The translations under genes and the position numbers were made by a program. A stretch of 26,187 bases of DNA from Chloroflexota bacterium. Lineage in GTDB: Bacteria; Chloroflexota; Dehalococcoidia; SZUA-161; SpSt-899. The stretch spans positions 1 through 26,187 of the forward strand of contig QLUN01000001.1 of assembly GCA_018725455.1 (NCBI GenBank), written 5' to 3'. Of this stretch, positions 382 to 25,154 are shown piece by piece (position 1 is the stretch's first letter; every line of letters begins with the position of its first letter). The notes beneath the pieces were generated by a model. That model was not told the origin of the DNA. It did no database searches and saw only the letters and a program-made list of their open reading frames with translations.

Positions 382-419
382 AAGCATCTCCGGTAAGCCG
401 CGATGTTGCGGCAGTGCTC

Positions 420-449
420 ATTGCTCCAGCGCTTTCGCAGCTTTGTTGC
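420..449 (-). promoter_or_regulatory. GCAACA-N18-AGCAAT element, copy 1
   Basis: Sense GCAACA aagctgcgaaagcgctgg AGCAAT; hairpin 397-412; 63 nt from ATG 381. Confidence 0.75.
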
Positions 450-455
450 GATAGC

Positions 456-1460
456 TCACGGCAAGAGCATTTTTCTACGTTCCGCTAGGCGTCCTAGCTG
501 CCTGCGGCGCTCCTCGCCATCAAGAGTTGTGTCGGCGTGCTCTGCGTATCGTGCTGGCATCGTGACGGTTTTCCATCCACCACGCTTCTGCATTTGTGCA
601 AGCGTAGCACCAGAAAGCATCATGTCCTGCGCCCCTCCCACCCTGCCCGAATGACCGCTAAGACCTTCCACGCCCACTAGCTTTCCACCTGTCTCAATGA
701 GCTTGGCTATCTGTCGAGTGGAGATCGGCTGACGACCGCTCCGGTAGGGAGAGGGAAAAAGCCAATCCTCCTCCGGGCACCTCTGGTCTGCAAAAGCGCG
801 ATGAGCCGAGATCCATTTCATCGTTTCTGGACTGATACTGCGAGTGCTACCAGCACCATCCTGATCCGTTTTTGATCGTTCAATCAGCATCTCGCCAGCA
901 TCGCCACGCACAGCGCGGATGTGGCTCAGCCGGAGCGATGAAATCTCACTGATTCTCAGCAGGCCGTCGTAGGCTAGTCCGATCATCGCGCCGATCATGG
1001 CATCACGAGGCCTTGAGGGTGAAAGGGTGGCAAGGATCGATCGCACAACATCCTCAGTCATTCCGATGGCCTGTTTCTGGCGTTTAGTCAGAATGTCGCG
1101 GCAGGCGTGTTTCCAAAAATCCCTGAACTCGGTGTTGTCTGTTGGGTCGGCGTGCCCCAACCTCCGGGATGCTGTTCTGATGGGGTAGAGGAGGGTTGTT
1201 TCAATGCTAGATCGCTTTTTTTTAGACTCAATGTGGCGCTTCACCACGTCAATCAGCAGAGCGTTGTTTGCGGGAATGGGTGGCAGTCCGGCGAGTTCGC
1301 AAGCCCTGCACCACCTTGTCCAGCCATCCGTGAGAACCTGAAGTGTTCGCGGAGCAAACGGCGTGACTTTGCTGCCATACATGACCGTAAAGAACGGTTC
1401 ATCGTAGGCGTCACTGACAATCGCGCGCTGCCGCGATGCGGTAGTCGTAGTCTCGCTCAA
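456..1460 (-). CDS. Cre-like tyrosine recombinase (TnpS/Cre-type resolvase), 334 aa, TTG start
   Basis: Catalytic set LLRISE (R), RSKTD (K), [10 protein letters not shown] (HxxR), GGWK (W as in Cre) and ARY (Y); C-terminal box resembles Cre SGHSARVGAARDM...QAGGW; start overlaps the csrA stop (TTGA). Confidence 0.9.
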
Positions 1461-1666
1461 GACTCTCCCCTCCCTTCTGCCTTAATATCGCACCTTGGTT
1501 TTTTACCGCTGGCGATCCGTTCTGCGACCTCCAGGCGATGTACCGCTACAGACCTTGGTGCATTGATTCCGATCCGAACTTGACCGCCCATTACTGAAAT
1601 AACCGTAACGGTAATTTGGTCGCCGATGGTTAGTGTTTCGCCTGGTTGGCGCGTCAGAATGAGCAT
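1457..1666 (-). CDS. csrA: Carbon storage regulator CsrA/RsmA (69 aa)
   Basis: MLILTR.PGE...IGD.I.V.V....G.QVRIGI.AP..VAVHR.E signature; GAGGAG RBS. Confidence 0.97.
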
Positions 1667-1669
1667 TAA

Positions 1670-2785
1670 TTACTCCTCTTTTCGTGTTTTTTGAAACTTA
1701 AGAAATTGCAATCGTTCCGCGATATTGGCAAGAGCTTCCGGCACCTTGGCGTTCATTTTTTCCATCTCGATGTTTCTTCGCCGCAAATCTTCTATTTCGC
1801 GGTTTAGTGTATTGTTTTCGGCTTGAAGATTGTGCTTGAGGATGTCTTTTTCGGCATCCGCTGAAATGCGATTTTCAAGCTCTCCCTCAAGTGCGATAAT
1901 TCGCTTCTCAAAAGCGTTTTTCGCCTCGGCCCATCGGGAAGCGGCCTCGGATTGTGTCGAGCGCATGCTTTGCACCTCTCGCAAGTGGGCCGTTTTGACC
2001 TCATTGATCGACTCGCGAAGGGCTGTCATTGAGGCTGCCGCCTCGGAAGCCACTCGATCAAGCTCGGCTTGCTTGGCTGCAACAGCAGCTTTCGCAGCAT
2101 CGGCCACAAGGCGTGATGCGGTGAGATCCTCACTGAGAGTGGATAGGCTGTCATTGGCTGTTTTGATGGCCGCCTGGGCCTGCTCGAGGCGTCTTTCGGC
2201 GTCTTTTGCGATGGCTTCAGCGGCTTGTCGTCTAGCTTCAGATTCTCTTCGGTCAGATGCCGCCGAGGCCGCTGATGCGCGAGCCGCTGCTAGCTCTGCA
2301 CTGGCGAGTTCAAGATTAGCCTTGAATATGGGAATAATCCTCTCGTTTTCCTCGGCTTTTTTCGCCAATTCATTTTCTTTGGACTCAGCCATTTTTAGGG
2401 TCTTTTGTGTCGCTTCACGCTCTGCCTCAACGTCAGACCATTCCCTGGCAAGAGCTTCATCAGCAGCCCGACGAGCATCCTCTCGGAGTTCGGCGATAAG
2501 TTCGTGTGCGGCCTTCGGAATATCGCTTGAATTAACAACAGTGATCTGGCCGTGCAGAAGGGCCGGTGCCCGTTCTGCGAACCATCGGCGGACAAGCGGG
2601 TGTAGCGTGTTCGGGCTACCTCCCAATATTCCGCGCACATTGGCTTCGCTAGGGGTTTTCCCGTTCTCAATCAGATGAAGGATGGCATCCTCGACATGAT
2701 TGATGGTTAGGGTTTCACGAGGTTCCCTAATGGGAGCACGGTGTTTCGTCTTTCCGGCAATGCCGGTTGAACTCGACTGATTCAT
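1670..2785 (-). CDS. KfrA_N-domain DNA-binding coiled-coil protein (KfrA/TnpT-like), 371 aa
   Basis: N-terminal GKTPSEANVRGILGGSPNTLHPLVRRW (KfrA_N-like), then about 250 aa of Ala/Glu-rich heptads; CAGGAG RBS before ATG 2785. Confidence 0.8.
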   Translation of the reverse strand: MNQSSSTGIAGKTKHRAPIREPRETLTINHVEDAILHLIENGKTPSEANVRGILGGSPNTLHPLVRRWFAERAPALLHGQITVVNSSDIPKAAHELIAELREDARRAADEALAREWSDVEAEREATQKTLKMAESKENELAKKAEENERIIPIFKANLELASAELAAARASAASAASDRRESEARRQAAEAIAKDAERRLEQAQAAIKTANDSLSTLSEDLTASRLVADAAKAAVAAKQAELDRVASEAAASMTALRESINEVKTAHLREVQSMRSTQSEAASRWAEAKNAFEKRIIALEGELENRISADAEKDILKHNLQAENNTLNREIEDLRRRNIEMEKMNAKVPEALANIAERLQFLKFQKTRKEE

Positions 2786-2954
2786 GATTTCTCCTGGTTG
2801 CAGAGCAGCCCGCATTCGATTGTTGGTTCGTCGGCGTATCGCCAGGAAACCTCCGGCAATTGGTCAAGAAAGACGCACCGTCGAACGCTAGGTTCCGCTC
2901 GACTGGTTTGCGGCACGGCCTATTGCGTGACGGGCCGTAGATCCCGATGCACAT

Positions 2955-3209
2955 TCAAGGCCTCCACACACGAAAAGATGCCGGCGCGGCAGGCGTGCCT
3001 CGTCTGTACTCCACAGCAATCCCTTGCTCAGAGAGGAGCCTTGAGAGCTTGTAGATGGCTTTTGTGGTGGTGCTGGCGACTACGAGCTTCACTTTTGGAT
3101 CTTCTGAACCCGCAACCTCAGACAATTGAAGCCTGACGGGTTGTGACTTGCCTTCCGCGAGTGCGGCGATTCGCTCGGCAATCTGGTTGACGTTCCATTT
3201 TCTGCTCAT
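2955..3209 (-). CDS. Hypothetical protein (84 aa)
   Basis: ORF track 2955..3251; GAGGGG RBS before ATG 3209; a sigma70 promoter overlaps the longer start. Confidence 0.65.
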   Translation of the reverse strand: MSRKWNVNQIAERIAALAEGKSQPVRLQLSEVAGSEDPKVKLVVASTTTKAIYKLSRLLSEQGIAVEYRRGTPAAPASFRVWRP

Positions 3210-3240
3210 CGGCCCCTCTGCGTGGCGCTTCATTCCGTCA

Positions 3241-3269
3241 ATCCTACCCATTTGGCTAATTCATGTCAA
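3241..3269 (-). promoter_or_regulatory. Sigma70-type promoter TTGACA-N17-TAGGAT
   Basis: Perfect -35, 17-nt spacer, 4/6 -10; faces the 3209 gene and possibly the kfrA-csrA-recombinase operon. Confidence 0.75.
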
Positions 3270-3273
3270 ACAC

Positions 3274-3297
3274 TGTACGTCATACATATGATGTACA
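3274..3297. repeat. 24-bp imperfect palindrome TGTACGTCATA-CA-TATGATGTACA (operator or accessory site)
   Basis: 11-bp arms with one mismatch; directly abuts the lox-like site. Confidence 0.75.
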
Positions 3298-3331
3298 TTA
3301 AATTCGTATAATGACACTTAGCGGAAATTAG
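3298..3331. other. lox-like recombination site TTAAATTCGTATA-ATGACACT-TAGCGGAAATTAG
   Basis: 13-8-13 layout; arms 11/13 and 8/13 identical to loxP arms; asymmetric spacer; Cre-like recombinase 1.8 kb away. Confidence 0.7.
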
Positions 3332-3510
3332 AGGTGCGCCAAAGGGGTGAGTGAGCGATCCAAAGCGCGGTTCGCCAGCAGTAGCTCATCGCGGGCTGCG
3401 GCAAGAAGCAGCAACGATCGCAAAGGATGGTTTGGACAAGCCGCCGCCGCTTTGTGCTGCTGATTTTTAGGCCCTATAGTTAGGTTGCATCGGATCTAGC
3501 GGAGATGGAC

Positions 3511-3540
3511 GCAACACGCCGAAAGAGTGGCCGCATCAAC
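3511..3540 (+). promoter_or_regulatory. GCAACA-N18-ATCAAC element, copy 2
   Basis: GCAACA cgccgaaagagtggccgc ATCAAC; hairpin 3548-3562; 64 nt from ATG 3580. Confidence 0.75.
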
Positions 3541-3579
3541 AACGGATGCCGCAATCAGCGGCGCAAAAGGATTGAACAA

Positions 3580-3996
3580 ATGACTCGCCTCACCTACCTT
3601 ATCGGCCACACCAGCCCGCTGCCGCCCTCTCTAACTGATCCAAATAACTACGGGATGATGGATTTCCGTCAGCCATCAGCGAATGGCCAAGAAACGATTC
3701 TGCTTCAGGAGCCAGGTCGCATCATTAATGAGTTCAGAGGAAAAAAATACAGCAGATCGCCGCTTGGAGTATGCTACCGGGATCACTGTTTTGCCCTTAT
3801 CGATAAGAGCTACCAATACATCATTCGTGTTGAAAATAGTGTGGGCACTCTAGATTTTCGCGTATCCCCGTATTTCCCGACGATTTTGATGCCGCTGGAA
3901 AGTGACGCGCGATTTATTCTTATGCACTTAATCTATAATGCGCGCTATCGCCAATGCGGAATCGCGCTGCCGAAAGCGCACTCGGACTGCGATTAA
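3580..3996 (+). CDS. Hypothetical protein (138 aa), paralog of 5914..6315
   Basis: AAGGA RBS; shares L.GH...LP.SL, ET.L.EPGR and LM...SD.RF..L blocks with 5914..6315. Confidence 0.75.
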   Translation: MTRLTYLIGHTSPLPPSLTDPNNYGMMDFRQPSANGQETILLQEPGRIINEFRGKKYSRSPLGVCYRDHCFALIDKSYQYIIRVENSVGTLDFRVSPYFPTILMPLESDARFILMHLIYNARYRQCGIALPKAHSDCD

Positions 3997-4050
3997 ACCC
4001 TGATTTAACCCGCCCTGCGCTGGATGCGCCGGGCATGCTTGGAGAATACA

Positions 4051-4233
4051 ATGAGCGATCCCTACAGAAAGGCATCCGCAGCCAAGGCCAAGGCTGCAAA
4101 AACCGCCACCGCAAAGATCGAGGCTGCTTTCGCTGCGGACATCTTCCGCGTATTCGAAGAATCCGCCAGGGCCAGGGCTGCCAAAGCCAAGAAGGAAGGA
4201 CAGATAACCAAAAAACCCACTACTGTTAAGTAG
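4051..4233 (+). CDS. Small basic Ala/Lys-rich protein (60 aa)
   Basis: GGAG 6 nt before ATG 4051; stop codon falls inside the terminator hairpin. Confidence 0.6.
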   Translation: MSDPYRKASAAKAKAAKTATAKIEAAFAADIFRVFEESARARAAKAKKEGQITKKPTTVK

Positions 4234-4244
4234 TGGGTTTTTTT
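4210..4244. terminator. Bidirectional intrinsic terminator
   Basis: AAAAAACCCACTAC-tgttaa-GTAGTGGGTTTTTTT between convergent genes. Confidence 0.9.
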
Positions 4245-4246
4245 AT

Positions 4247-5074
4247 TCATGGATGCGACACTGGTGGAGCTTTGAATTTTTCACGCAGTCGAACAAGCTC
4301 GCCAGCCACGCCAAGGTTGTACACCTCAATCCCTTTATTTTTTGCAATCCTCAGCGACTGGCCTGTGCCGCCGGCCATTAAGCCATCCCTTGTCCAGCAA
4401 ACGATGAAATCGACCGGGCTTTCAAGATCAGCGCCGAGCAATTGATGGACATTGCGAGCATGGAGTGCTTTCGCCCCATTCTTGCAAGAATCCCATGCTG
4501 GATGAGACTTCGCCGCCAGTGCAAAGGCTTCAGGTGATGGTGTTTGGCTCGAAGAGTGCCCATTAAAGCCAGCCCAGGGCACCCACACCTCTGCATCCCC
4601 TCCGGCGGCCAGTGCGCCCTCCTCGAAAGCAGAGTCGGCACCTATAGCAGCGCCGGAGCGCAAGGTGTAGCCCTTCCCCGCTAAGTACCCGGCAATCTTC
4701 CGCATCGAATCGAGGATTTCTTGCGGAGTTCTTCGTGAGCCGATGCCAGCGTAGGATTTGAATTGACTGGGTTGATTCGTTGAGTTGGCGATTTGCATCA
4801 AGACATCGGCATGGCAAGCGTGCGGGGCACACCAGCACACTAAATCCTTCCCACCGAGTTCAGACCTGATGCGGGTGAGTAGGCCCGGCTCCACATCCAT
4901 TCTATCAATCAACCATCTCCTATAGCGCAAGATCGCCTCATCGCGCGATGAAACTCGGAACTTAGCAATCGTACTGCTCAAGTGCGAGAATGGGTTTCCC
5001 CATTCGGACGGTCGACCAACATACACCGCCGATGGCGGTGTAGCGCCGTGGTGCTTGTTGTAGACGCGAGGCAT
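4247..5074 (-). CDS. DUF4326 + SLOG (DprA/Smf-like) fusion protein, 275 aa
   Basis: N-terminal YVGRPSEWGNPF...GKDLVCWCAPHACHADVL (DUF4326); C-terminal YAGIGSRRTP...LRSGAAIGADSAFE...GGTGQ (SLOG); CAGGAG RBS before ATG 5074. Confidence 0.85.
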   Translation of the reverse strand: MPRVYNKHHGATPPSAVYVGRPSEWGNPFSHLSSTIAKFRVSSRDEAILRYRRWLIDRMDVEPGLLTRIRSELGGKDLVCWCAPHACHADVLMQIANSTNQPSQFKSYAGIGSRRTPQEILDSMRKIAGYLAGKGYTLRSGAAIGADSAFEEGALAAGGDAEVWVPWAGFNGHSSSQTPSPEAFALAAKSHPAWDSCKNGAKALHARNVHQLLGADLESPVDFIVCWTRDGLMAGGTGQSLRIAKNKGIEVYNLGVAGELVRLREKFKAPPVSHP

Positions 5075-5087
5075 GGATTTCTCCTGG

Positions 5088-5116
5088 AAAAACGCCCCGA
5101 GGAAAACCCCGGGGCG
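5088..5116 (-). terminator. Intrinsic terminator between the 6315 operon and the DUF4326-SLOG gene
   Basis: CGCCCCG/CGGGGCG stem followed by T5 on the minus strand. Confidence 0.65.
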
Positions 5117-5127
5117 CTGGTTATGGG

Positions 5128-5355
5128 TCACTCGTGAGCGGCCTTCTTGAGCGAATCGCTCCACCAGTTGCCGGTGATGGCGAAGTGGTACTCATCAGCC
5201 ATGAAGCCAGCGACTCCCGTCTCTCGGACCTCGCGGATGCGTTTCTGGGAGACATTTTGCCGTGCCGCCAGGTCGCTGATTGTGACCCGATGCTTTCGCA
5301 TGAGGCTTGAAACCATCGTTCCCGGCATCCGAAGCCCCGCGTAAGCGGCGCTCAT
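5128..5355 (-). CDS. Small HTH-like protein (75 aa)
   Basis: Start coupled to the upstream stop (TGATG); LMRKHRVTISDLAARQNVSQKRIREV resembles a helix-turn-helix. Confidence 0.6.
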   Translation of the reverse strand: MSAAYAGLRMPGTMVSSLMRKHRVTISDLAARQNVSQKRIREVRETGVAGFMADEYHFAITGNWWSDSLKKAAHE

Positions 5356-5666
5356 CACTCGTACCGTGGTCGACGCAGCGGATAAGGCTGCGGTTGTTCC
5401 CCACGCTGCATCACTGCGCCGTATTGGCCGCCGGCGTAAATCGCACTGCCGACGTCCCTTGTGCCTTCTGATGCCTTTCGAGCTTGATCCCAAAGGCGAT
5501 CCCGGTAACGACTCGCTTTGGCTTTCGACCGGAAGACACGTAGGAAGCGGCGATGCTCAGGCTCGGTGCTCGGCACGTTCGTATCGAAGTGCCAGCCCCC
5601 TTCCTCCGGGCCGCCATAGGCACGATCCAACTCGTGCAGGGCGACCACAAACCGACGGCGGCTCAC
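5355..5666 (-). CDS. Hypothetical protein with a YGGPEEGGW motif (103 aa)
   Basis: ORF track; ATGA overlap with the upstream gene; motif typical of a mobile-element hypothetical family (recognition only). Confidence 0.75.
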   Translation of the reverse strand: MSRRRFVVALHELDRAYGGPEEGGWHFDTNVPSTEPEHRRFLRVFRSKAKASRYRDRLWDQARKASEGTRDVGSAIYAGGQYGAVMQRGEQPQPYPLRRPRYE

Positions 5667-5917
5667 GCTGCGACTCCGTGCTCACGGCGAAGCGTGAATG
5701 CGTGATAGGACTCCCGCGTCCAAACCCCAATCGGCGAGCCATTAACGCTCGGCCGATCGACGATCCGGTACTGATGCAGGCCCGGTGACTCGCACCACTC
5801 ATCCCACTCAACGAGCGGGACGCCAGCGTCCGTATGACCAACGACCGTGCCGTAGTAGTCGGCGATCATCGCGCCCCAGACACCCACAACGCGGGTTCCA
5901 ACGGCCACGACGTTCAT
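5663..5917 (-). CDS. Hypothetical beta-rich protein (84 aa)
   Basis: ORF track; ATGA overlaps at both ends. Confidence 0.7.
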   Translation of the reverse strand: MNVVAVGTRVVGVWGAMIADYYGTVVGHTDAGVPLVEWDEWCESPGLHQYRIVDRPSVNGSPIGVWTRESYHAFTLRREHGVAA

Positions 5918-6315
5918 GCGGCCACCTTCATTGCAGCGTTAGCGGCGTTGCGGCCCGCGATGATCCCGTCCTCGCGAACGCAGTGCATCGTAAGCAGCAT
6001 GACGAAGCGCTGATCTGAGTGCATAGACATGAGGACTTCAATAGCAGCGTCCCCATAAGGCAGCCAGACTTCTTCTTGACCCGAGCCCGTCTTCATAAAG
6101 ATGGCGTAGACGCCGCTACGCAGACCGATGGCGAAGTTGTAAGCAAAACGGTTTAACGGCCCAGACGGGCTGACCACTCGCCGGCCCGGCTCCTCGAGAA
6201 CGGTTTCCCAATCAACAGGGACGTAAGGCAGTCGCCCGGGTTCAAGGTTTGGGTTTCCTTCCAGGCTTGCCGGAAGGCCGTCGCTGTGACCGGCGAGAGT
6301 GCGAATAGTGGACAT
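5914..6315 (-). CDS. Hypothetical protein (133 aa), paralog of 3580..3996
   Basis: ORF track; first gene of a coupled four-gene operon. Confidence 0.75.
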   Translation of the reverse strand: MSTIRTLAGHSDGLPASLEGNPNLEPGRLPYVPVDWETVLEEPGRRVVSPSGPLNRFAYNFAIGLRSGVYAIFMKTGSGQEEVWLPYGDAAIEVLMSMHSDQRFVMLLTMHCVREDGIIAGRNAANAAMKVAA

Positions 6316-6353
6316 GATTGATTTCCAAGTGAGTACCGTATTGGCGCATCACT

Positions 6354-6383
6354 AATGCCGAAGCCCTTGCCCAAGTCTGTTGC
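6354..6383 (-). promoter_or_regulatory. GCAACA-N18-GGCATT element, copy 3
   Basis: GCAACA gacttgggcaagggcttc GGCATT; 63 nt from ATG 6315. Confidence 0.7.
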
Positions 6384-6427
6384 GTGCCCTTTCTGGGCAG
6401 CCTTTGCATCTGCCCGCCACCAACATT

Positions 6428-6460
6428 AAAAATGGCGGCCCAAGGCCGCCCTTTTCTTTT
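6428..6460. terminator. Intrinsic terminator downstream of dsbC
   Basis: GGCGGCC-caa-GGCCGCC flanked by A and T tracts. Confidence 0.7.
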
Positions 6461-6475
6461 GTTGTGAAGCAAGGG

Positions 6476-7201
6476 TTAGAGAGGATCTAAGCCCAGACCT
6501 TGCAGCAACATCGGTGCTGGCAACGCTCCGCCGAAGTCCTTGCCGTTCTGATCAAACACGCCGGGTGTGCCGCGAACACCAAGCGCCGCGCCGGCGGCGA
6601 TGGCCGGCATCAAATCAATCGAGCAACCCGGCTTTGGCGTTGCATGGTTCTCAGGGCTGACCATGTAGGCAGACAGCGCAGCTTTCGGATCAGCCGAACA
6701 CCAAATGTCACGCATCACGACATAGGCGGGGCTCGCCTTCCCGCCGCGGGGCCACGGGTAATAGGTGACGCTCACGCCTTGTGCGTTTAGCTCCGGGATC
6801 GTCGCCTTATGGAAGCTCACGCAAAACGAGCACGAAACATCAGTGAATACAATGAGGTGTCCGCGTTCATTCTCTGCGGGATAGCGGATAGCCAAGTGAG
6901 AAGGAAGGTGTGCAATCGATGCACGCCTCACCTCTTCCATGCGCTCAACCGTGTAGGAGTGGTGATCCGCCACTCGGACAACATTACCAAAAACAACGTG
7001 ACGACCATTGTTCAGCACATAAGCGACATTGCCGCCGTTGTAAGTGACCTCAGTCCAGCCTCGAAGCGGGCCGTCCGCAACGCGATCAACAATCGCTCCT
7101 GGCACTAGCGCGGTAATCGCAGCAGCTTCTTTGGATTCTGATGCAAATGCTGCGCCAGCAAGGCCCACTGCAAGTGCAGTGGCAATCAATGTTTTTTTCA
7201 T
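6476..7201 (-). CDS. dsbC: DsbC-family thiol:disulfide isomerase (241 aa)
   Basis: Signal peptide MKKTLIATALAVG; VFTDVSCSFC (CxxC); WPRGG; GVRGTP (cis-Pro loop). Confidence 0.9.
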   Translation of the reverse strand: MKKTLIATALAVGLAGAAFASESKEAAAITALVPGAIVDRVADGPLRGWTEVTYNGGNVAYVLNNGRHVVFGNVVRVADHHSYTVERMEEVRRASIAHLPSHLAIRYPAENERGHLIVFTDVSCSFCVSFHKATIPELNAQGVSVTYYPWPRGGKASPAYVVMRDIWCSADPKAALSAYMVSPENHATPKPGCSIDLMPAIAAGAALGVRGTPGVFDQNGKDFGGALPAPMLLQGLGLDPL

Positions 7202-18378: not shown

Positions 18379-18391
18379 GGACATCTTGCAG

Positions 18392-18607: not shown

Positions 18608-18652
18608 TTCCTGTACTCCTGTCAGTACATTTCCTCGAAGTGAGGCAGCAGC

Positions 18653-18682: not shown

Positions 18683-18691
18683 GTGCTCTTG

Positions 18692-18727
18692 TTGCGAGTG
18701 TTGCGAGTGCTGCGAGTGTTGCGAGTG
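18692..18727. repeat. 4 x 9-bp tandem repeat (TTGCGAGTG; third unit CTGCGAGTG)
   Basis: Read directly; unit junctions regenerate TGTTGC (= GCAACA). Confidence 0.9.
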
Positions 18728-18775
18728 CAGAACTTGCAACAAGATGACCACCCCACCCTATTCTGGATGATGAAC

Positions 18776-18809
18776 AAAAACCCCGACCAGAGAGCAAGTC
18801 TGGTCGGGG
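18776..18809 (-). terminator. Intrinsic terminator
   Basis: CCCCGACCAGA-gagcaag-TCTGGTCGGGG; A5 on the left. Confidence 0.8.
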
Positions 18810-18819
18810 ATTGGTTTTG

Positions 18820-20007
18820 TTAAGCCGCCTGCTTCTGGGAAGCGATGCGGCGAGCCTTGACGGTGAGTTGTTCGTGGATCCGTATCAGGATTGACGGATC
18901 AGCAGCTTCAAAGCTACTTGTTCCGTGATACGCCAATACGTTGGCCGGATCCGTCTTAGTTCTATCTATCAGACCGCTGATCTCTTCAATCAACCGATCG
19001 CGAGCATCCTTGTCTCCCGGTGAATGAGCCTCGCTCGAGGCACCAGATGCCTCGGGCGCTGGAGTCTCCTTTGGAGTCTCCTTTGGAACTTCCTTGTCGA
19101 TCTGTTGCATCGCTGCCAACTCGTCCATTGATGCTTTGGCGTAAATGGACAATCCGTACCCGGTACAATGGGCTATGGCCTTCGCCAGGCAGCGCATGAC
19201 TGCTGTGTTCCACATGGCTGCCGTGGGGTTAAGGCACGGCTGGTTGTGTAGGATCACTTTCTTATTTGCCTTGCTGGTGATCTCCTTTGACTCCGTGATG
19301 GCAAGAGTTTCCTCGTGCTCAATACCCTTGTAAGCCACCTTGACAGTAACCAGGTACCCTCCCGGAACCCGGAGGTAGGGCTGAACAGAAGCCTCACCAT
19401 TTTCATTGGAAGTGTCAAATTCGACCACTTGCCAATGGAAGTTCGGATCTGTGATCCGGGCAGCGGCAAGAGCAGAAGGCCACTCTAGATAAGGGCGGCG
19501 CTCTGCCATCCCCACTCGGGGCTCAACGATTGAGAGATCTGTTTCTGGTGTAACACCAACCTCGTTCACAAAATCAACGCCGTTGGTGAAAACGGAATTT
19601 CTACCGCTCTTCAGGTGTACACCAAGGCCGATGCCAAGGGCCATTGAAATGCTCTTTCTTTTGGTGGTTGTAATCCCGTCCGCGATGTCCCGGCTATCAA
19701 GACGATCAACAGGAATGGGCTGATTCTTGTTGTCGAGAATCACGGAAAACGACCGACAAGGCTTTTCACCGAATCCTTTCGTATCTACGGCAATTACCGC
19801 CCCTCCGAATACCTCTCGGTACGGCAGATCATCCTTGTATCGGACAACCGCCTGTTTTGGTCGGTTGGCTAGAATGATGATTCTGGAAGTCGGAACGTAG
19901 GTTAGTGGAATCTTGTTCCCACTTTTTTTGTCCTCAATCTCAAGGACAAATGAAAAAGGCGTTACATCGACGCATGCAGCGTCGAAAAACGATTTATGTG
20001 CTTTCAT
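18820..20007 (-). CDS. Sak3-like (DUF1071) single-strand annealing protein with two tandem domains (395 aa)
   Basis: Second domain ends NTAVMRCLAKAIAHCTGYGLSIYA (Sak3 signature); first ends KRKSISMALGIGLGVH; GGAG RBS before ATG 20007. Confidence 0.8.
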   Translation of the reverse strand: MKAHKSFFDAACVDVTPFSFVLEIEDKKSGNKIPLTYVPTSRIIILANRPKQAVVRYKDDLPYREVFGGAVIAVDTKGFGEKPCRSFSVILDNKNQPIPVDRLDSRDIADGITTTKRKSISMALGIGLGVHLKSGRNSVFTNGVDFVNEVGVTPETDLSIVEPRVGMAERRPYLEWPSALAAARITDPNFHWQVVEFDTSNENGEASVQPYLRVPGGYLVTVKVAYKGIEHEETLAITESKEITSKANKKVILHNQPCLNPTAAMWNTAVMRCLAKAIAHCTGYGLSIYAKASMDELAAMQQIDKEVPKETPKETPAPEASGASSEAHSPGDKDARDRLIEEISGLIDRTKTDPANVLAYHGTSSFEAADPSILIRIHEQLTVKARRIASQKQAA

Positions 20008-20043
20008 CTGCAACTCCATTAAGCCGCAGGACGCGGCAGGAAT

Positions 20044-20073
20044 GTTGCTAAAGCTTGAGCTTGCATCTGTTGC
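20044..20073 (-). promoter_or_regulatory. GCAACA-N18-AGCAAC element, copy 8
   Basis: 61 nt from ATG 20007; hairpin 20023-20037. Confidence 0.75.
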
Positions 20074-20096
20074 GTGCGTGGAGTTATTTTACAAAC

Positions 20097-20744
20097 TCAT
20101 TCGCAGGCAACACCGTCCCTGTCGCGATCCATTGAAGCACGGTACTCCGGCGAGCCCAGTTGAGCCGGAGCCCTCCCTGCCCGACGCAGGTCATCACACG
20201 TCATGACCCCAGGGTCATTAGGCCTTCGATTGGATAATTCCACGCCTTCAGCGCTGCTACGCCCGCGATTGGCTGATCGAAAGTCCCACGGCGCTACGAA
20301 CTCGCCCTGCCAAACACCTCGTCGCTCTCTTCGAGCTTCCGCAGCGCCTGCAAGGTGCTTTCTGCCTCCGAACTGCACATAGGGTAGAGCCCATCCGTTT
20401 CTAATCATCCAAGCGTTGACGCTCACTTGGCCCATGTAGCACTCGCCGATTGCTCGCTTGAATCGATCACGAGCGGCCACCTCGCATCGAACGTTTTGGC
20501 TGCCAATGAAATCTGACAAAGCTAGTGCCGCTTGCTGACCACAGCGATATTCGCGGCCGCCAGAATCACTGCACGTTTGCGACGACTCAGGCGCGTCTAT
20601 CGCGCTTAGCCGCACCCTCTCAGAGCGAATTTCGATGGTGTCGCCATCAATCACTGAAGCACGCCCGATGAGGGTCTGGCCCTCGGATAACACAGGAAAA
20701 GCTGCAATGGCCGCAGCAAGAGCAACGCAAGAACGGTAACGCAT
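20097..20744 (-). CDS. Secreted thermonuclease (SNase-like) with a C-terminal Excalibur Ca-binding domain (215 aa)
   Basis: Signal peptide; VIDGDTI, VRLSAIDAPE, DRFKR; C-terminal CDDLR...MDRDRDGVACE. Confidence 0.9.
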   Translation of the reverse strand: MRYRSCVALAAAIAAFPVLSEGQTLIGRASVIDGDTIEIRSERVRLSAIDAPESSQTCSDSGGREYRCGQQAALALSDFIGSQNVRCEVAARDRFKRAIGECYMGQVSVNAWMIRNGWALPYVQFGGRKHLAGAAEARRERRGVWQGEFVAPWDFRSANRGRSSAEGVELSNRRPNDPGVMTCDDLRRAGRAPAQLGSPEYRASMDRDRDGVACE

Positions 20745-20780
20745 CGCACCCCCCCTTTTTTTGCCCTCAAAGCAACAGTG

Positions 20781-21098
20781 CTAGACAACAGGCCCACCCA
20801 TGCCAAGGCTGCGCATCATAGCCTCGGAGGCTTCTAGGCAATCATTGCACCAGGGCTCGAATAGATTGGGGCCAACCTCAACGCGAACCGTTGACGGCTT
20901 GCTCATACAGCACTGGCACAATCCCTTACCCACCGGCTTTGGCGTCCCTAACGGCATGATGTCAACACCACACGTCTTGCAGGGCAATATAAAGGTGTTG
21001 AACTCCAGCTTGCTGCGTCGAGAGAGTGGCGGCGCTAAAAGATGCCCGCAAGAACCGCAAGCAGACTTCGGCCCTGGGAAGTTAATGATGTTGCTCAT
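20781..21098 (-). CDS. Cys-rich putative zinc-binding protein (105 aa)
   Basis: CGSC, CKTC, CQCC and CNDC motifs. Confidence 0.65.
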   Translation of the reverse strand: MSNIINFPGPKSACGSCGHLLAPPLSRRSKLEFNTFILPCKTCGVDIMPLGTPKPVGKGLCQCCMSKPSTVRVEVGPNLFEPWCNDCLEASEAMMRSLGMGGPVV

Positions 21099-21242
21099 GA
21101 GCTACTCACTTGTGTTGCTTCCGATGTGTGCATGGATCAAGCATAGCCCTGTCATCGCGTGAGACAAAAACACCAGTGTTTACTTGGGCCTCGAGGCACC
21201 AATTGGCGGCACGGAGCCTGCTTGCCAAGCAACCCCAAAAGG

Positions 21243-21275
21243 AAAAAAGCCCCGACAAATACCGTGTCGGGGCTT
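21243..21275 (-). terminator. Intrinsic terminator
   Basis: AAGCCCCGACA-aataccg-TGTCGGGGCTT; A6 on the left. Confidence 0.85.
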
Positions 21276-21280
21276 GCTTA

Positions 21281-21496
21281 TCATCGTCTGAAGTTTTTGG
21301 CCTTGGCCTTGAAGGCCGAATAGGCGACCCAGCCCCCTATGGCCGAGCTTCCGACTAACAGGCCCAGCGTTACTGCTGGAACCAGAATTTCCATCATAAA
21401 TGCAGGAAAAAACTGGAACCCGAAGACAATGATTCCAATGCAAATGAAAAGGCCTATGAAAGCTCCCGCCCCGACCCTTGCTTCCTGCTCATTCAT
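21281..21496 (-). CDS. Small membrane protein with 2 predicted TM segments (71 aa)
   Basis: GGAG RBS; start overlaps the upstream stop; two hydrophobic stretches and a basic tail. Confidence 0.7.
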   Translation of the reverse strand: MNEQEARVGAGAFIGLFICIGIIVFGFQFFPAFMMEILVPAVTLGLLVGSSAIGGWVAYSAFKAKAKNFRR

Positions 21497-21674
21497 TGAA
21501 TTCTCCAGTGAAGGAGAGGCCCATAAATGCTCCGAAAGTTCCGAAGCGGATTCCAAGGGCACCTGAAAGGGCTGGGTTAAGCCCTTGTCTGCCATCGGCC
21601 TCCAGTGAAGCCAAGTCGGCGGCCTCAGCCGCCTGTTTTGCGGCTTCAGCCGCAAAAATGAGATCAAAAAGCAT
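21489..21674 (-). CDS. Hypothetical protein (61 aa)
   Basis: CAGGAG RBS before ATG 21674. Confidence 0.6.
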   Translation of the reverse strand: MLFDLIFAAEAAKQAAEAADLASLEADGRQGLNPALSGALGIRFGTFGAFMGLSFTGEFNE

Positions 21675-21733
21675 TCTGTACTCCTGCCCCGGTTGGTTGT
21701 GTGGGCGAATGCCCGCTGAGTTGGGGCAAAGGA

Positions 21734-21764
21734 GTTGATGTTTGGATTTCGCAAGCACTGTTGC
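21734..21764 (-). promoter_or_regulatory. GCAACA-N19-ATCAAC element, copy 9
   Basis: Spacer one base longer; 85 nt from ATG 21674; back-to-back with copy 10. Confidence 0.55.
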
Positions 21765-21778
21765 GAGCATGCCGGCAT

Positions 21779-21808
21779 GCAACAGTCATCGCCCTTTGTT
21801 CATGCAAT
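21779..21808 (+). promoter_or_regulatory. GCAACA-N18-TGCAAT element, copy 10
   Basis: 63 nt from ATG 21847; hairpin 21814-21830. Confidence 0.75.
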
Positions 21809-21846
21809 TCCGCTGTCGCAATCCGCGACAAGTAAAGAGAAAGAGG

Positions 21847-22035
21847 ATGTTGTACCCATGCGCCATTAAGCAATACGGCTTCTATGAAGGCATCGGTCAT
21901 ACGACCAGCCTCACGGGAGCAAAGGCAATACTGATTCAGTTTTGTGAAAGATTCAAACAACCCGAGGTCAGTCGAAAACTGATTCGTCTTGATGGCGAAA
22001 TGGTTGAGGCTTTCGTATTTGAGTCCGATCAATAA
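21847..22035 (+). CDS. Hypothetical protein (62 aa; MLYPCAIKQYGFYEG...)
   Basis: 3' part of track ORF 21742..22035; AAGAGG RBS; motif, hairpin and terminator all in register. Confidence 0.65.
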   Translation: MLYPCAIKQYGFYEGIGHTTSLTGAKAILIQFCERFKQPEVSRKLIRLDGEMVEAFVFESDQ

Positions 22036-22038
22036 AGC

Positions 22039-22074
22039 AACCCCCCTTTCTCTAGTGATAGAGATTGGGGGGTT
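22039..22074. terminator. Hairpin/terminator between convergent genes
   Basis: AACCCCCC-tt-TCTCTA-gtga-TAGAGA-tt-GGGGGGTT. Confidence 0.7.
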
Positions 22075-22079
22075 ATTGG

Positions 22080-22529
22080 TTATTTGAAAGAGAGTGCTGA
22101 AAGCGCCCTTTCTATGTAACGGGCGATGTCCGTGCATTTTAGATACCACAAGATGTGGCCTCTAAACCCGGCATAACTGTCGGGCTTCATGAGTAACCGG
22201 AGGCGCTTAACCGCCCTCAGGTGTTCCTTGGCCTCGGCCAAGTCAAACCTCCTGGCATCCCCATTGCCACCAACCACCAAAACGATAGTGGGCAGATGCG
22301 GAATTATCTTCACCTGAATAATTCTTGTGTTGCCTGGCGGCCGCATCACCGCGCCAACTTGTGCAGGCGTCTTGCCTGCCACTCCGGGGTGGAACATGAA
22401 AACATCCCCCTCCCCCCCGGCATCTTCGATCAGCCTCTGGGCCAGCCTTTGCTGACCAGCGGTGGCCTTGGCCATTTCGCCCTTGAACGAATCGCCGTAT
22501 AGTTCGGCGTCTAGTAAAATGGGTGTCAT
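22080..22529 (-). CDS. Hypothetical protein (149 aa)
   Basis: AAGGAG RBS before ATG 22529. Confidence 0.72.
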   Translation of the reverse strand: MTPILLDAELYGDSFKGEMAKATAGQQRLAQRLIEDAGGEGDVFMFHPGVAGKTPAQVGAVMRPPGNTRIIQVKIIPHLPTIVLVVGGNGDARRFDLAEAKEHLRAVKRLRLLMKPDSYAGFRGHILWYLKCTDIARYIERALSALSFK

Positions 22530-22571
22530 CAGAACTCCTTGATTTATTTCTGGGCTGCTCCCAGTCAACGA

Positions 22572-22601
22572 AATGCCCTGCTATAAGCAGGGCATTGTTG
22601 C
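22572..22601 (-). promoter_or_regulatory. GCAACA-N18-GGCATT element, copy 11
   Basis: 67 nt from ATG 22529; hairpin 22550-22564; the spacer is itself palindromic (AATGCCCTGCT-ata-AGCAGGGCATT). Confidence 0.75.
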
Positions 22602-22610
22602 AAGCGCGTC

Positions 22611-22853
22611 CTACCGACGAAACGGCGACCTGCTGGCGGAAAGCAGCTTCAGAATTGTTGCGCCGTGCTCGGCCAGATAGCGTCCTGAGCGGATCTCGGC
22701 AACATCTGCGGCAGACGTTCGAAAGCCGCTCAAAGCAAACTCAGCGCGAGCGCGATTGATCGCATCCATTGCTGAAATCAAGCCGGCCTCGACCGCTGAA
22801 GAGATCGGCGGGTCATCTGCCGCCTTCTGGCATGCTTGAATTGGTTCATTCAT
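22611..22853 (-). CDS. Hypothetical protein (80 aa)
   Basis: ORF track; GAGAGG RBS. Confidence 0.68.
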   Translation of the reverse strand: MNEPIQACQKAADDPPISSAVEAGLISAMDAINRARAEFALSGFRTSAADVAEIRSGRYLAEHGATILKLLSASRSPFRR

Positions 22854-22893
22854 ACGATCCTCTCTTTTGTGCGTCGTGGTTTACGACACCCCC

Positions 22894-22923
22894 ATTGCTC
22901 CCTCTCGCCTAGCTAGGTGTTGC
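22894..22923 (-). promoter_or_regulatory. GCAACA-N18-AGCAAT element, copy 12
   Basis: 65 nt from ATG 22853; hairpin 22873-22887. Confidence 0.78.
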
Positions 22924-22931
22924 AGCAATTG

Positions 22932-22964
22932 AAAAAAAACACCCGCTGATTGCTCAGCGGGTGT
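22932..22964 (-). terminator. Intrinsic terminator
   Basis: ACACCCGCTGA-ttgc-TCAGCGGGTGT; A8 on the left. Confidence 0.88.
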
Positions 22965-22971
22965 GGTGAAA

Positions 22972-23967
22972 TTAGGCAACCAATGTGATCGCCCAACTTT
23001 TGGTACCCTCCTTGCGGAAGGACTCCATCTTTTCCTCAGAGAGTGTCACTCGTGCGATCAAAGACGGGTCTTTGATGCCCGACTCATTGAGTACGGCCAG
23101 CACTTCAGCCTGAAGCGCCTTGACTGCCTCAGCCATGTCCACCGCGCCCTTTCTGGCACTCTCTGTTGCCCGAACCTTATCGATCTCAACCTTCGGCTCG
23201 CCCGATTTTTTTGCATAGCCGATAATCAAATCTCGGCTTGCATTCATCACATCCGTCTCTCTTTCAATTATTAGCTTGCTGGAGCGGTAGGCTTCTGCCG
23301 CATTCAGCACTTCCACCGGGATTTTTCGACCGCACTTCACCTCATCCCAGAAGCGAAGATGTAGGGGGATGAGTCCCTCGGCCATACGCCGAAGCGCGTC
23401 GTTTCGAGCACTAATAACCGCGAGAACCGTCTCGCCCTCGCGATGGTTTACGAAGTGAATCTCCCGAGACAAATCCCACGCTTCCGGTCGCCCCCATGCG
23501 GTAATTGCCTGATGAACAATCTGCGGGAAGTAGTAAGGCACAACGCGCCCTTCTTTTGCCATCCGGTGAACATCGGCATTGGCGACCTTGATCTCCAAGA
23601 GAACATCAAGCTCCAGATCAGCGCCGTCGAAAGACGATCGAATGATCGGAAACTCATCCATCTCACCAAAAATTGGTGAAGTGAGGATTCCGGTGGTTTT
23701 TTCGTGCCATTGCTTGATGATCGGCTCAAGTTCCTTGCCTCGCCGCATTGCGAAACTCTCCTTGAACTCCCTCTTCTCCCCTTGCTTCTCCCGAACCAGC
23801 GCTGGGTAGTCCCGCTGCCAACTCGCAGCATCTGAGGATGAAAGCAGCCCTCCTTGAAAAGCTATCGTTGCCGCATCGGAGCCGCCGATACCACCGGATC
23901 GCCAGTGGTGCCAACGGGCACTGTCAGGCGAGCCTGACTCCGTCAATTCAAAATGAACGTGCTTCAT
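22972..23967 (-). CDS. YqaJ-like (lambda-exonuclease family) recombination exonuclease (331 aa)
   Basis: W...RSGGIGGSDAA; MRRGKELEP; RSSFDG; LLEIK; YYFPQIVHQ; AGGAGG RBS before ATG 23967. Confidence 0.92.
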   Translation of the reverse strand: MKHVHFELTESGSPDSARWHHWRSGGIGGSDAATIAFQGGLLSSSDAASWQRDYPALVREKQGEKREFKESFAMRRGKELEPIIKQWHEKTTGILTSPIFGEMDEFPIIRSSFDGADLELDVLLEIKVANADVHRMAKEGRVVPYYFPQIVHQAITAWGRPEAWDLSREIHFVNHREGETVLAVISARNDALRRMAEGLIPLHLRFWDEVKCGRKIPVEVLNAAEAYRSSKLIIERETDVMNASRDLIIGYAKKSGEPKVEIDKVRATESARKGAVDMAEAVKALQAEVLAVLNESGIKDPSLIARVTLSEEKMESFRKEGTKSWAITLVA

Positions 23968-24003
23968 TAAGCCTCCTATCCCCGGCAAAGCGCCGGTAGG
24001 GGG

Positions 24004-24033
24004 GTTGCTTAGAGCGTCAAAAAATAGTGTTGC
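24004..24033 (-). promoter_or_regulatory. GCAACA-N18-AGCAAC element, copy 13
   Basis: 61 nt from ATG 23967; hairpin 23982-23996. Confidence 0.78.
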
Positions 24034-24046
24034 GTGATGAAACGAC

Positions 24047-24076
24047 GCAACAACTTACGCATAGATTCAGATCAAC
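24047..24076 (+). promoter_or_regulatory. GCAACA-N18-ATCAAC element, copy 14
   Basis: 64 nt from ATG 24116; hairpin 24082-24101. Confidence 0.78.
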
Positions 24077-24115
24077 CCTTCTTGCCGCACTGACGCGGTA
24101 ATGTGGGAGTTTCAG

Positions 24116-24625
24116 ATGGAATCAAAGCATGGTTCCGCGCTTTCGGGTGGTGTCTGGGAGCTTGCGGAAGACGAGGATAGGTCAATTCCAAAAAGTCGAT
24201 CCGAAGCAATAAGGGAAGCGTGCGAGGATAGAGAGCCAGAAACTCGGCTTCTTGCCGAGATCATTGCTTTAGCAGTGGAGGACTTAGAGGTAATCGAAGC
24301 AACAAAAGGTTTTGCAATCGAAGTTAGTGACGACCTGCGGTTAAGCGCAGTGAGTTCAGCAACCTTCTTTATAAAGGGCGTTGCCGGAGAGTATATGAAG
24401 CTGATTGGCATCGAATCAGTACTGCCACAGCTTAAGGCAAGGTCAATTGGTGTCCTTGGTGCGCTTGGCCCCGGATGGTCGCATCTCTCAAAGCTAAAAG
24501 ACGATAAGGCGAATCAGCGGATTTTCAAAGCGCTTGGTATTGCTAGGCGGCCCATTGATCGCATGGATGCGCCAGCTAGCGCAAGATCAGGAATGAGAAA
24601 CAAGCTGGTTGTCAGTCTTGTATAA
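24116..24625 (+). CDS. Hypothetical protein (169 aa)
   Basis: GGGAG RBS before ATG 24116; helical core PETRLLAEIIALAVEDL...SATFF. Confidence 0.72.
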   Translation: MESKHGSALSGGVWELAEDEDRSIPKSRSEAIREACEDREPETRLLAEIIALAVEDLEVIEATKGFAIEVSDDLRLSAVSSATFFIKGVAGEYMKLIGIESVLPQLKARSIGVLGALGPGWSHLSKLKDDKANQRIFKALGIARRPIDRMDAPASARSGMRNKLVVSLV

Positions 24626-24646
24626 AGCCCCTAATCTGTATCGTAT

Positions 24647-24720
24647 AAAAACCCTGCCCTGAAAGCCAGAGCAGGGTTTTCTTTTGCAAAAAAAAAGAAA
24701 CCCCGCATTTGCGGGGTTTC
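24647..24720. terminator. Two adjacent terminators, one for each convergent gene
   Basis: AAAACCCTGC...GCAGGGTTTT with a following T-tract (+); GAAACCCCGC-attt-GCGGGGTTTC with A9 on the left (-). Confidence 0.88.
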
Positions 24721-24760
24721 TGAGTGCTTCAAAAGGTTCGCAAGAACGAATCAGTACGGA

Positions 24761-25117
24761 TCAGTACGGATCAGACTCATCACTCTCAAGCTCTTCCGTG
24801 CCTGAAGACTTCGGTGAGAGATAGGCGATCGAAGATGCAACCACCTTAACGGAGGTTCTCTCCTTGCCCTCTTTGTCGGTATATTGTTCTACAACCAAGT
24901 GGCCTGAAACACCGAGTCGATCACCCTTCTTGATGGCTGCCAATCGCTCACCCTGCCCACCCCAAGCTTCGACGTTGAGCCAGAGCGGCTCCCTATCCTT
25001 GCCATTACTCACGGCAACGCGCACTTTTGACACCGCCTTGTCGACGCCAACCCTTGAACTGGTGGCGTCGCCACCTGCATTTCCATAAAAACTGTAGTTG
25101 TTGTTGAAACGTGACAT
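24761..25117 (-). CDS. ssb: Single-stranded DNA-binding protein (118 aa)
   Basis: GNAGGD, WLNVEAWG, KKGD..GVSGHL....YTDKEG; acidic tail ESDESDPY; GGAG RBS before ATG 25117. Confidence 0.92.
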   Translation of the reverse strand: MSRFNNNYSFYGNAGGDATSSRVGVDKAVSKVRVAVSNGKDREPLWLNVEAWGGQGERLAAIKKGDRLGVSGHLVVEQYTDKEGKERTSVKVVASSIAYLSPKSSGTEELESDESDPY

Positions 25118-25154
25118 TTCTTGCTCCGGTGAGATCCGAAATTGGATCAGGGTA

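Follow-up and report, generated by a model that had tools for sequence, protein, structure and literature searches.

Stem-loops at the 5′ end are established stabilizers of bacterial mRNA (reviewed in PMC3997798; see also the work of Emory, Bouvet and Belasco cited there). The stretch of DNA analysed here, 26,187 nt in length and referred to as the window, is contig C1 (QLUN01000001.1) of a fragmented Chloroflexota assembly derived from groundwater metagenomes, and it carries 13 copies of a small cassette that may place such a stem-loop at the start of each mRNA it heads. The cassette consists, in order, of box 1 (CnYGCAACA), 19 nt, box 2 (GCAAT or GCATG), 6–7 nt, a 5-bp stem with a 5–6-nt loop, about 17 nt and the start codon. 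It resembles the 5′ untranslated regions of ompA and papA and the +1 stem-loop of the T7 gene 10 leader in having a short, stable stem-loop, predicted to lie at the transcript start and upstream of the ribosome site, in which structure is conserved rather than sequence and is formed by the sense strand. The effect expected from these stabilizers is protection from 5′-end-dependent decay (PMC3997798), which the cassette hairpin may share. The cassette hairpin differs from them in that it is tied to one promoter type, is repeated, and has a 5-bp helix and a partly conserved loop.

A second likeness is to CUP of pKM101, Reg576 of p576 and Frpo/ssi of F and ColIb-P9, where one regulatory unit stands before many establishment-type genes. 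The genes headed by the cassette include ssb, recombinases, nucleases, a methylase-helicase and RadC, and the plasmid that the window appears to represent carries conjugation-type genes. The CUP promoters of pKM101 are sigma-70-type promoters with protein operators. The Reg576 promoters of p576 are also sigma-70-type with protein operators (PMC6294495). The cassette boxes, in contrast, are not sigma-70-like, and the third part of the element appears to be an RNA hairpin. Frpo-type elements are long single-stranded DNA hairpins which rebuild the −35 and −10 sequences in their stems, and they act on one strand only (in part after PMC11541004). Both cassette boxes, on the other hand, lie 5′ of a 15-nt hairpin and are separated by a 19-nt spacer without folding, the boxes have no likeness to sigma-70 elements, and cassettes are found in both orientations (3 on + and 10 on −), including one back-to-back pair. 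Set beside these systems, the cassette can be described as a promoter-fused 5′ leader hairpin that defines a plasmid regulon.

The hairpin is real and exceeds chance; shuffles, a sliding-window scan and a control within the assembly all separate it from background. An earlier reading of the same sequence, the initial annotation, listed 12 stem-loops, and all 12 are present, with stems of 4–7 bp and loops of 5–6 nt, a stem start 5–8 nt after box 2, and a stem end that, as was claimed, precedes the ribosome-binding site, falling 14–24 nt upstream of a start codon preceded by a Shine–Dalgarno (SD) sequence. A relaxed scan adds a 13th copy (box 1 at 6378–6383). Exact matches to GCAACA-N20-CAA number 11 in the window against 0.37 expected. 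Equal folding of shuffled leaders at the hairpin offset, which the annotation had proposed to look for, is not seen. Individual copies have RNA z-scores of −1.2 to −3.8 relative to 200 dinucleotide shuffles in 12 cases and −0.55 in the 13th (6328–6351). The 24-nt segment after box 2 has a mean minimum free energy of −8.56 kcal/mol versus −4.11 kcal/mol in dinucleotide shuffles, and with a standard deviation of 0.51 for the 13-copy mean, the set lies about nine standard deviations beyond the shuffles. When a 20-nt window is slid from −80 to +120, a single sharp dip appears 2–8 nt after box 2 (mean −8.3 kcal/mol, background −0.5 to −3 kcal/mol), with 11 of the 13 copies below −5 kcal/mol. The promoter spacer and the coding start remain at −0.5 to −2.5 kcal/mol, and the only other folding dip is that of the upstream terminators. 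As a control, 42 sites elsewhere in the assembly, on contigs other than those of the cassettes, that fit a relaxed version of the boxes (GCAAC, 20 nt, G/T-C-A-A/T) average −2.8 kcal/mol, compared with −8.3 kcal/mol for a set of 37 true copies. Folded within the predicted 5′ part of the mRNA, the hairpin is retained, with a mean pair probability of 0.77. The window gives no match to a known RNA family at the gathering score of Rfam 15. Neither is there a sign of an intrinsic terminator or attenuator: the hairpins have no U tract, their tails being mixed or A-rich and leading into the SD, and a terminator scan reports none of them.

Related copies were collected from Logan and JGI contigs retrieved by homology to the annealing protein and the helicase encoded in the window. 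Six metagenomic plasmid contigs share the same backbone (L005, L013, L019, L014, L020 and L021; helicase 50–63% identical to that of the window), and the cassette is present in all six. A more distant, GC-rich clade has cTGCAACA as box 1 and GCATG as box 2, with linker and hairpin retained. Two further relatives, L008 and L009, are without the motif. A covariance model was built from 15 in-register seed copies and then used to realign all copies; it gives 79 matches at E ≤ 1 in 230 kb, with a few of the weakest on the motif-less L008 and L009. Removal of duplicates and of the L008/L009 matches leaves 69 copies. MAFFT misplaced the hairpin register between clades (six helicase leaders) and for copies with 6-nt loops (43 copies), and RNAalifold on the MAFFT alignment of the six helicase leaders gave no signal, the hairpins being out of register.

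In the model-based alignment (75 distinct rows) the helix covaries, as the initial annotation had proposed for homologous leaders. Standard pairs fill 96.8% of stem cells versus 71.8% in column shuffles, double-sided changes are found in 62 cells versus 10.2, and the covariation score of 0.641 (0.185 in shuffles) is reached by none of 500 shuffles. If the 3′ partner is slid by 1–3 columns, pairing is only 18–48%. These pairing figures lean towards structure because the alignment was fitted to the model; the folding tests on raw sequence are independent of any alignment. The claim that stem sequence varies while geometry is kept is borne out by 34 different 5-bp core stems among 73 copies, of which 26 have GCCGC-type stems. 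Orthologous leaders, as aligned, differ by compensatory changes. Those of the helicase gene have GGCCC/GGGCT in the window, GACCC/GGGTT in L005 and L019, and GCCGC/GCGGC in L014, L020 and L021; those of an 80-aa gene have GTCGT/ACGAC in the window and GCCGC/GCGGT in L005. The 19-nt spacer between the boxes is fully diverged (about 0 bits per column).

The geometry can be followed in more copies than those of the window. Among the 37 copies the stem starts 4–8 nt after box 2, most often 6 or 7 nt, and has 4–7 bp, with a mode of 5. In the larger collection the loop has 5 nt in 48 copies and 6 nt in 15 copies, and loop lengths overall range from 3 to 8 nt. The start of the loop varies least, falling 11–12 nt past box 2 in 34 of the 37 copies; the stem is less fixed at its outer end. 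An SD and start codon follow in 66 of the 69 copies, and the distance from stem end to start codon has a median of 17 nt (10–90% range 15–22.5).

The nature of the deviations from Watson–Crick pairing distinguishes RNA from DNA. Over the five stem pairs, G·T or T·G occurs 34 times versus 4 for A·C or C·A, and when each distinct stem is counted once the figures are 16 versus 3 (p = 0.004). The outermost pair is G-C in 44 of the 75 rows and G·U in 23. The large excess of G·U over A·C argues that the structure is selected on the sense strand, in the leader, and therefore as RNA. On this evidence the hairpin most probably acts as RNA and not as a duplex palindrome, a cruciform or a template-strand hairpin.

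There are also indications of where the transcript may begin. All but 3 of 74 rows have G as the first base of the stem, and T immediately precedes it in 44 of 69 copies. The next position outwards pairs at chance level (27 of 69, 27.4 expected); therefore selection for pairing covers five pairs and ends abruptly at the conserved G. This G lies 7 (sometimes 8) bases after box 2, a gap of 6 nt. In promoters of the sigma-70 family the last −10 base and +1 are the same distance apart, and a pyrimidine at −1 with a purine at +1 is the usual start context, which T/G fits. We infer a start site at the conserved G, such that the hairpin would occupy +1 to about +15 of each mRNA.

The two boxes are read as −35-like and −10-like elements of a promoter without sigma-70 consensus. 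In the 9.2-kb gene array at 17000–26187 only one match to the sigma-70 consensus is found, versus 4.2 in shuffles, and it is inside a gene. Strong intrinsic terminators lie just upstream of several cassettes, and cassettes 11 and 12 stand back to back in the 148-nt intergenic region between start codons 23967 and 24116. Because the sigma-70 match is lone and intragenic, terminators lie upstream and these two cassettes are divergent, the boxes are the only candidate promoters. Group 4, or extracytoplasmic function (ECF), sigma factors of the sigma-E type recognize GGAACTT, 16 nt, TCAAA in E. coli. The cassette may be compared with such promoters in its invariant AAC core in box 1, its invariant C-A (TCAA or GCAA) in box 2, and its non-conserved spacer of rigid length, 19 nt and rarely 20 nt; it differs in that the distance from AAC to box 2 is about 2 nt longer and the box 1 consensus is 9 bp. 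A sigma-54 reading of box 2 was considered and rejected, as position −24 lacks the GG and the spacing is unsuitable.

The search for a protein that reads the boxes gave the following. The two ECF sigma genes of the assembly are on small unrelated contigs without the motif, and phmmer with their products finds no match on the plasmid DNA examined, the plasmids being partial. Pfam and PHROGs searches of the small open reading frames (ORFs) give no candidate reader, ESM Atlas has no match for a conserved 311-aa protein of contig C57, and a full-text literature search for the GCAACA box returned nothing relevant. Within the assembly the motif is confined to plasmid contigs, and this favours a plasmid-encoded reader. 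The lack of sigma-70 features, together with the outcome of these searches, points to an unrecognized transcription factor or sigma. A tandem array of an extended box 1 unit, CTCGCAACA, is found at 18690–18727 (−), directly upstream of cassette 6, with a 9-bp period and 4.2 copies. The CTCGCAACA array hints that box 1 may by itself be a site bound by a protein, and it may be a binding-site array or a decoy for whatever recognizes box 1. A box pair with one mismatch (CCAACA, 19 nt, GCAAC) is also seen at 2797–2826 (−) before a KfrA-like gene; no hairpin comes after it, the SD being placed straight behind box 2, and it is either a chance occurrence or a hairpin-less variant.

What, then, might the hairpin do? 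The explanation considered best, with about even chances of being right, is that of a 5′-terminal leader hairpin which protects or insulates the mRNA. Each copy would be a self-contained expression cassette of the plasmid, in which box 1 (CnYGCAACA) and box 2 (GCAAT, TCAAY or GCATG), 19 nt apart, would serve as −35-like and −10-like promoter parts. Transcription would begin 7 (sometimes 8) bases past box 2, at the almost invariant G, and the first 15–16 nt of the mRNA would fold into a 5-bp GC-rich stem with a 5–6-nt loop, followed by a short A-rich spacer, an SD site and, about 17 nt on, the start codon. With no single-stranded 5′ end, the mRNA would be shielded from 5′-end-dependent decay (RppH and then RNase E, or RNase J), and the hairpin would in addition prevent base-pairing between the 5′ end and the ribosome site. 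The outcome would be uniform, strong expression of plasmid replication, recombination and establishment genes. The initial annotation had suggested a 5′-terminal mRNA hairpin of this kind, and the suggestion gains from the covariation, the sense-strand pairing and the stop of pairing at the conserved G; its 5′-terminal position, as well as the start site and the stabilizing effect, are what we infer from the sequence.

Several points weigh against this explanation and keep confidence at an even level, chiefly the conservation of the loop. In the 5-nt loops (n = 48) position 1 is a purine in all 48 (A in 34, G in 14), position 2 is A or C in 39, and a pyrimidine is found at position 3 in 44 and at position 5 in 41. 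The loops AATCC, ACTCC and ATTCC recur in lineages with unrelated spacers. A partly conserved loop (R-A/C-Y-N-Y) is unexpected from pure end-protection and leaves room for a protein-binding role. Further, the spacing from box 2 varies less for the loop start than for the stem start, and three helicase leaders from the distant clade have the hairpin 8–9 nt, and not 6–7 nt, after the box-2-like sequence. With the box reader not found, the −10-to-+1 geometry is an assumption. Two metatranscriptome runs, stored as short assembled contigs, contain pieces of the window DNA, but these matches fall inside the H-NS, helicase, annealing-protein, YqaJ and ssb genes, with no transcript 5′ end among them.

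Conservation of the loop would suit an RNA operator: a plasmid or host protein would bind the 5-bp stem and the R-A/C-Y-N-Y loop, in the manner of lambda N at boxB or of a phage coat protein, and would co-ordinate the whole regulon by repression, stabilization or antitermination. We regard this as unlikely on balance. Lineages in which the 19-nt spacers have lost all likeness still share the loop composition, and the helix is held at exactly 5 bp, which together with a purine-first pentaloop is the size and shape of boxB. As in boxB, the hairpin has 15 nt with a GC-rich stem and belongs to an early transcribed region behind a promoter. The cassette loop (A-A/C-Y-N-Y) is, however, pyrimidine-rich on its 3′ side and not purine-rich or GNRA-like as are the boxB loops (GAAAA, GAAGA). 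It should also be pointed out that the cassette hairpin abuts the promoter in every copy, that there are no conserved flanks beside it that could be a boxA-like partner, and that with its own promoter and terminator for each gene antitermination would be unnecessary. An N-like protein was not recognized among the small ORFs by Pfam or PHROGs, nor was an RNA-binding domain. The one protein that comes to mind as a binder is a 103-aa protein (5355–5666, −), which is basic, carries RRRR near its N terminus and has a cassette ahead of its own gene. No other small protein in this family of plasmids is as well conserved: its identity with the L020 counterpart is 76%, against only 50% for the helicase, and G18, G19, E22, G23 and W25 are invariant within a GGPEEGGW motif. 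Yet its family is widespread and unnamed (514 clusters at E ≤ 0.001), its predicted fold, compact and confident (pLDDT 95), has no match in the PDB by Foldseek, and no connection with RNA emerges. The protein may represent a small, hitherto undescribed fold found in mobile elements, and the evidence speaks neither for nor against its binding the hairpin. The candidate plasmid CsrA (1457–1666; the label of the gene comes from the initial annotation) was rejected as partner since the loops have no GGA. A more specific form of the proposal is that the hairpin is the recognition site of a dedicated plasmid factor that would act on every transcript from the private GCAACA/GCAAT promoters, loading, as N does at boxB, at the nascent 5′ end and making a closed two-layer expression system. 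This we consider doubtful; if true, genes for replication, recombination and establishment would be served by a promoter code and an RNA tag that both belong to the plasmid family.

A translational role is also rather improbable, in which the hairpin would act as insulator or standby, keeping the 5′ end off the SD and giving a uniform geometry of ribosome loading, with only a small effect on decay. The tightly held distance from stem end to start codon (median 17 nt, 10–90% range 15–22.5) and the A/T-rich, unpaired spacer after the stem speak for it, and leaders of about 32–35 nt would place the hairpin at the edge of the ribosome footprint. However, the predicted accessibility of the SD is moderate (mean unpaired probability 0.56), this role leaves the helix start at the predicted start site and the conserved loop unexplained, and it overlaps with end-protection. 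Quite improbable is a role of the inverted repeat as DNA, either as an N4- or Frpo-type promoter hairpin or cruciform, or as the duplex operator of a dimeric repressor just downstream of the −10 box. At the N4 virion RNA polymerase promoter the template strand forms, ahead of the start site, a stem of 5–7 bp capped by a 3-nt loop. The initial annotation had drawn the analogy to Frpo and N4, and it finds no support: the boxes are outside the hairpin, the spacer is unpaired, copies are on both strands, loops have 5–6 nt and not 3, the selected structure is on the non-template (sense) strand, and no N4-like polymerase gene is found among the ORFs scanned with Pfam. The rigid distance from box 2 to loop (11–12 nt in 34 of 37 copies) and the over-representation of GCCGC-type stems (26 of 73) would suit a DNA site, and sets of establishment-gene promoters under one plasmid repressor are known, e.g. 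Reg576 of p576 (PMC6294495). Still, the ratio of G·T to A·C (34 versus 4) is of opposite sense to that expected of a template-strand hairpin and speaks against a cruciform or a duplex palindrome, the latter being broken by the outer G·T in 23 of 75 rows, and 34 stem sequences with loops of 3–8 nt, without conserved half-site or fixed spacing, are incompatible with one sequence-specific dimer. Finally, the hairpins might have no function and might have arisen by chance or mutation, from GC-rich leaders or when cassettes were duplicated. Some copies are indeed paralogous (cassette 1 and the copies on contigs C24 and C255 share linker and stem), and one copy (6333–6347) is decayed. But pairing has been kept through 62 double-sided changes while the spacers were randomized to about 0 bits, and shuffles, slid registers and in-genome controls fail to reproduce it, which makes this explanation close to negligible.

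Ten of the cassettes in the window are on the − strand. Cassette 1 (397–449, −) has box 1 at 444–449, box 2 at 420–424 and a hairpin at 397–412 with a 5-bp GCCGC stem and a 6-nt loop (z −2.69); its gene (−) begins at 381 or 387 and ends at 82. Cassette 3 (6333–6383, −; 28.1 bits with the covariance model), with box 1 at 6378–6383, box 2 GCATT at 6354–6358 and a start at 6315, is the copy absent from the earlier list. Its decayed hairpin (6333–6347, −; z −0.55) has one C·A mismatch and one G·U, but retains the loop AATAC. Cassette 4 (17792–17843, −; z −2.30) has box 1 at 17838–17843, box 2 TCAAT at 17814–17818 and a hairpin at 17792–17805, and precedes the start at 17774 of a 1615-aa methylase-helicase. 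In cassette 5 (18268–18320, −; z −2.98) box 1 is GCAACG at 18315–18320, with box 2 at 18291–18295, a hairpin at 18268–18284 and a start at 18251. Cassette 6 (18633–18682, −; z −1.33) has box 1 at 18677–18682, box 2 at 18653–18657, a 4-bp stem in the hairpin at 18633–18645, and a start at 18607. A Sak-type annealing protein (start 20007) is headed by cassette 7 (20023–20073, −; z −3.41), with box 1 at 20068–20073, box 2 GCAAC at 20044–20048 and the hairpin at 20023–20037. Cassette 9 (22550–22601, −; z −2.27) has box 1 at 22596–22601, box 2 GCATT at 22572–22576, a CTGGG stem in its hairpin at 22550–22564 and a start at 22529. Cassette 10 (22873–22923, −; z −2.12) has box 1 at 22918–22923, box 2 at 22894–22898, a GTCGT stem in the hairpin at 22873–22887 and a start at 22853. 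Cassette 11 (23982–24033, −; z −1.19), with box 1 at 24028–24033, box 2 GCAAC at 24004–24008 and a hairpin at 23982–23996, precedes a YqaJ-type exonuclease (start 23967), and cassette 13 (25133–25184, −; z −3.79), with box 1 at 25179–25184, box 2 GCAAA at 25155–25159 and a GATCC stem in the hairpin at 25133–25148, precedes ssb (start 25117).

The three cassettes on the + strand are similar. Cassette 2 (3511–3562, +; z −2.04) has box 1 at 3511–3516, box 2 TCAAC at 3536–3540, a hairpin at 3548–3562 with a GCCGC stem and the loop AATCA, and a start at 3580. Cassette 8 (21779–21830, +; 51.4 bits, z −3.65) has box 1 at 21779–21784, box 2 at 21804–21808, a hairpin at 21814–21830 with core GTCGC and loop AATCC, and a start at 21847. 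Cassette 12 (24047–24101, +; z −3.49) has box 1 at 24047–24052, box 2 TCAAC at 24072–24076, a hairpin of seven pairs, one of them G·U, at 24082–24101, and a start at 24116. The gene behind cassette 12 (24101–24625, +) is divergent from the YqaJ gene and encodes a 174-aa protein that is 64% identical in L005; it has no Pfam family match, and its neighbours in the ESM Atlas, by protein language model, are HEAT-repeat proteins. Behind cassette 3, a high-scoring copy, is a conserved operon (4247–6315, −), also present in L013 (20891–23297), L014 (18164–20092) and L020 (17985–20041). It encodes a 133-aa protein with a LEEPGRR motif, an 84-aa protein, the Arg-rich 103-aa protein and a DUF4326/SLOG protein, and the 133-aa protein has a paralogue at 3580–3996.

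The assembly has 1.3 Mb in 304 contigs and is about 54% complete. As annotated, the gene content of the window is of plasmid type. It includes a tyrosine recombinase, a KfrA-like protein, DsbC, an HDOD protein, a Toprim/AAA_25 primase-helicase and H-NS, followed by the 1615-aa N6-methylase/SNF2 helicase, the Sak-type annealing protein, a staphylococcal-type nuclease, the YqaJ exonuclease and ssb, the last named from a Pfam match on an identical Logan contig. Contigs C24, C57, C230 and C255 of the assembly are further parts of the same element, and the cassette is present on all four. They encode a RepC-type initiator, an EAL protein, RecD2-like and UvrD-like helicases, R64-type thin-pilus genes, topoisomerase III, ParM, RadC and a Dcm methylase. 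Altogether the cassette precedes at least 24 genes of this one plasmid and recurs across the whole plasmid family.

Some variation among relatives was also seen. Near 21619 a metatranscriptome contig (run X3, 21479–21691) lacks 21 bases that the window has, a sign that another sample holds an in-frame length variant of the gene at 21281–21778. A rearranged relative is suggested by a DNA contig of run X4 in which 40 foreign bases connect 19639 with 23265. In L013 an IS605-family TnpB (OrfB) gene (2861–4216) lies between two cassettes, just upstream of the nuclease gene. PLSDB has no near relative of the window, and a scan of species genomes gave a single irrelevant match. The nearest PLSDB plasmid is pSTJ2 of Sulfuricystis multivorans (L022, NZ_AP018720.1), with a helicase 44% identical. 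At 1800–14200 this plasmid has a different repeated leader before many establishment-type genes (ssb, ArdC and others), in the order TCAACCCC, a longer 20–25-nt GC hairpin, GGGGCATGGT and SD.

The analysis defines from sequence a complete, portable expression cassette, made of a promoter code, a putative 5′ RNA hairpin, a short leader, a gene and a terminator. An uncultured plasmid family of groundwater bacteria uses it for ssb, recombination, nuclease and methylase-helicase genes and for many unknown genes. If the hairpin is the 5′ end of the mRNA, the cassette would be a natural and heavily replicated example of end-protection built into a promoter, and the 73 copies with their 34 stem variants would offer a ready mutational series for the rules of 5′-end-dependent decay. 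The cassette is also a simple signature for finding the regulon, and hence candidate establishment and anti-defence genes, in related plasmids.

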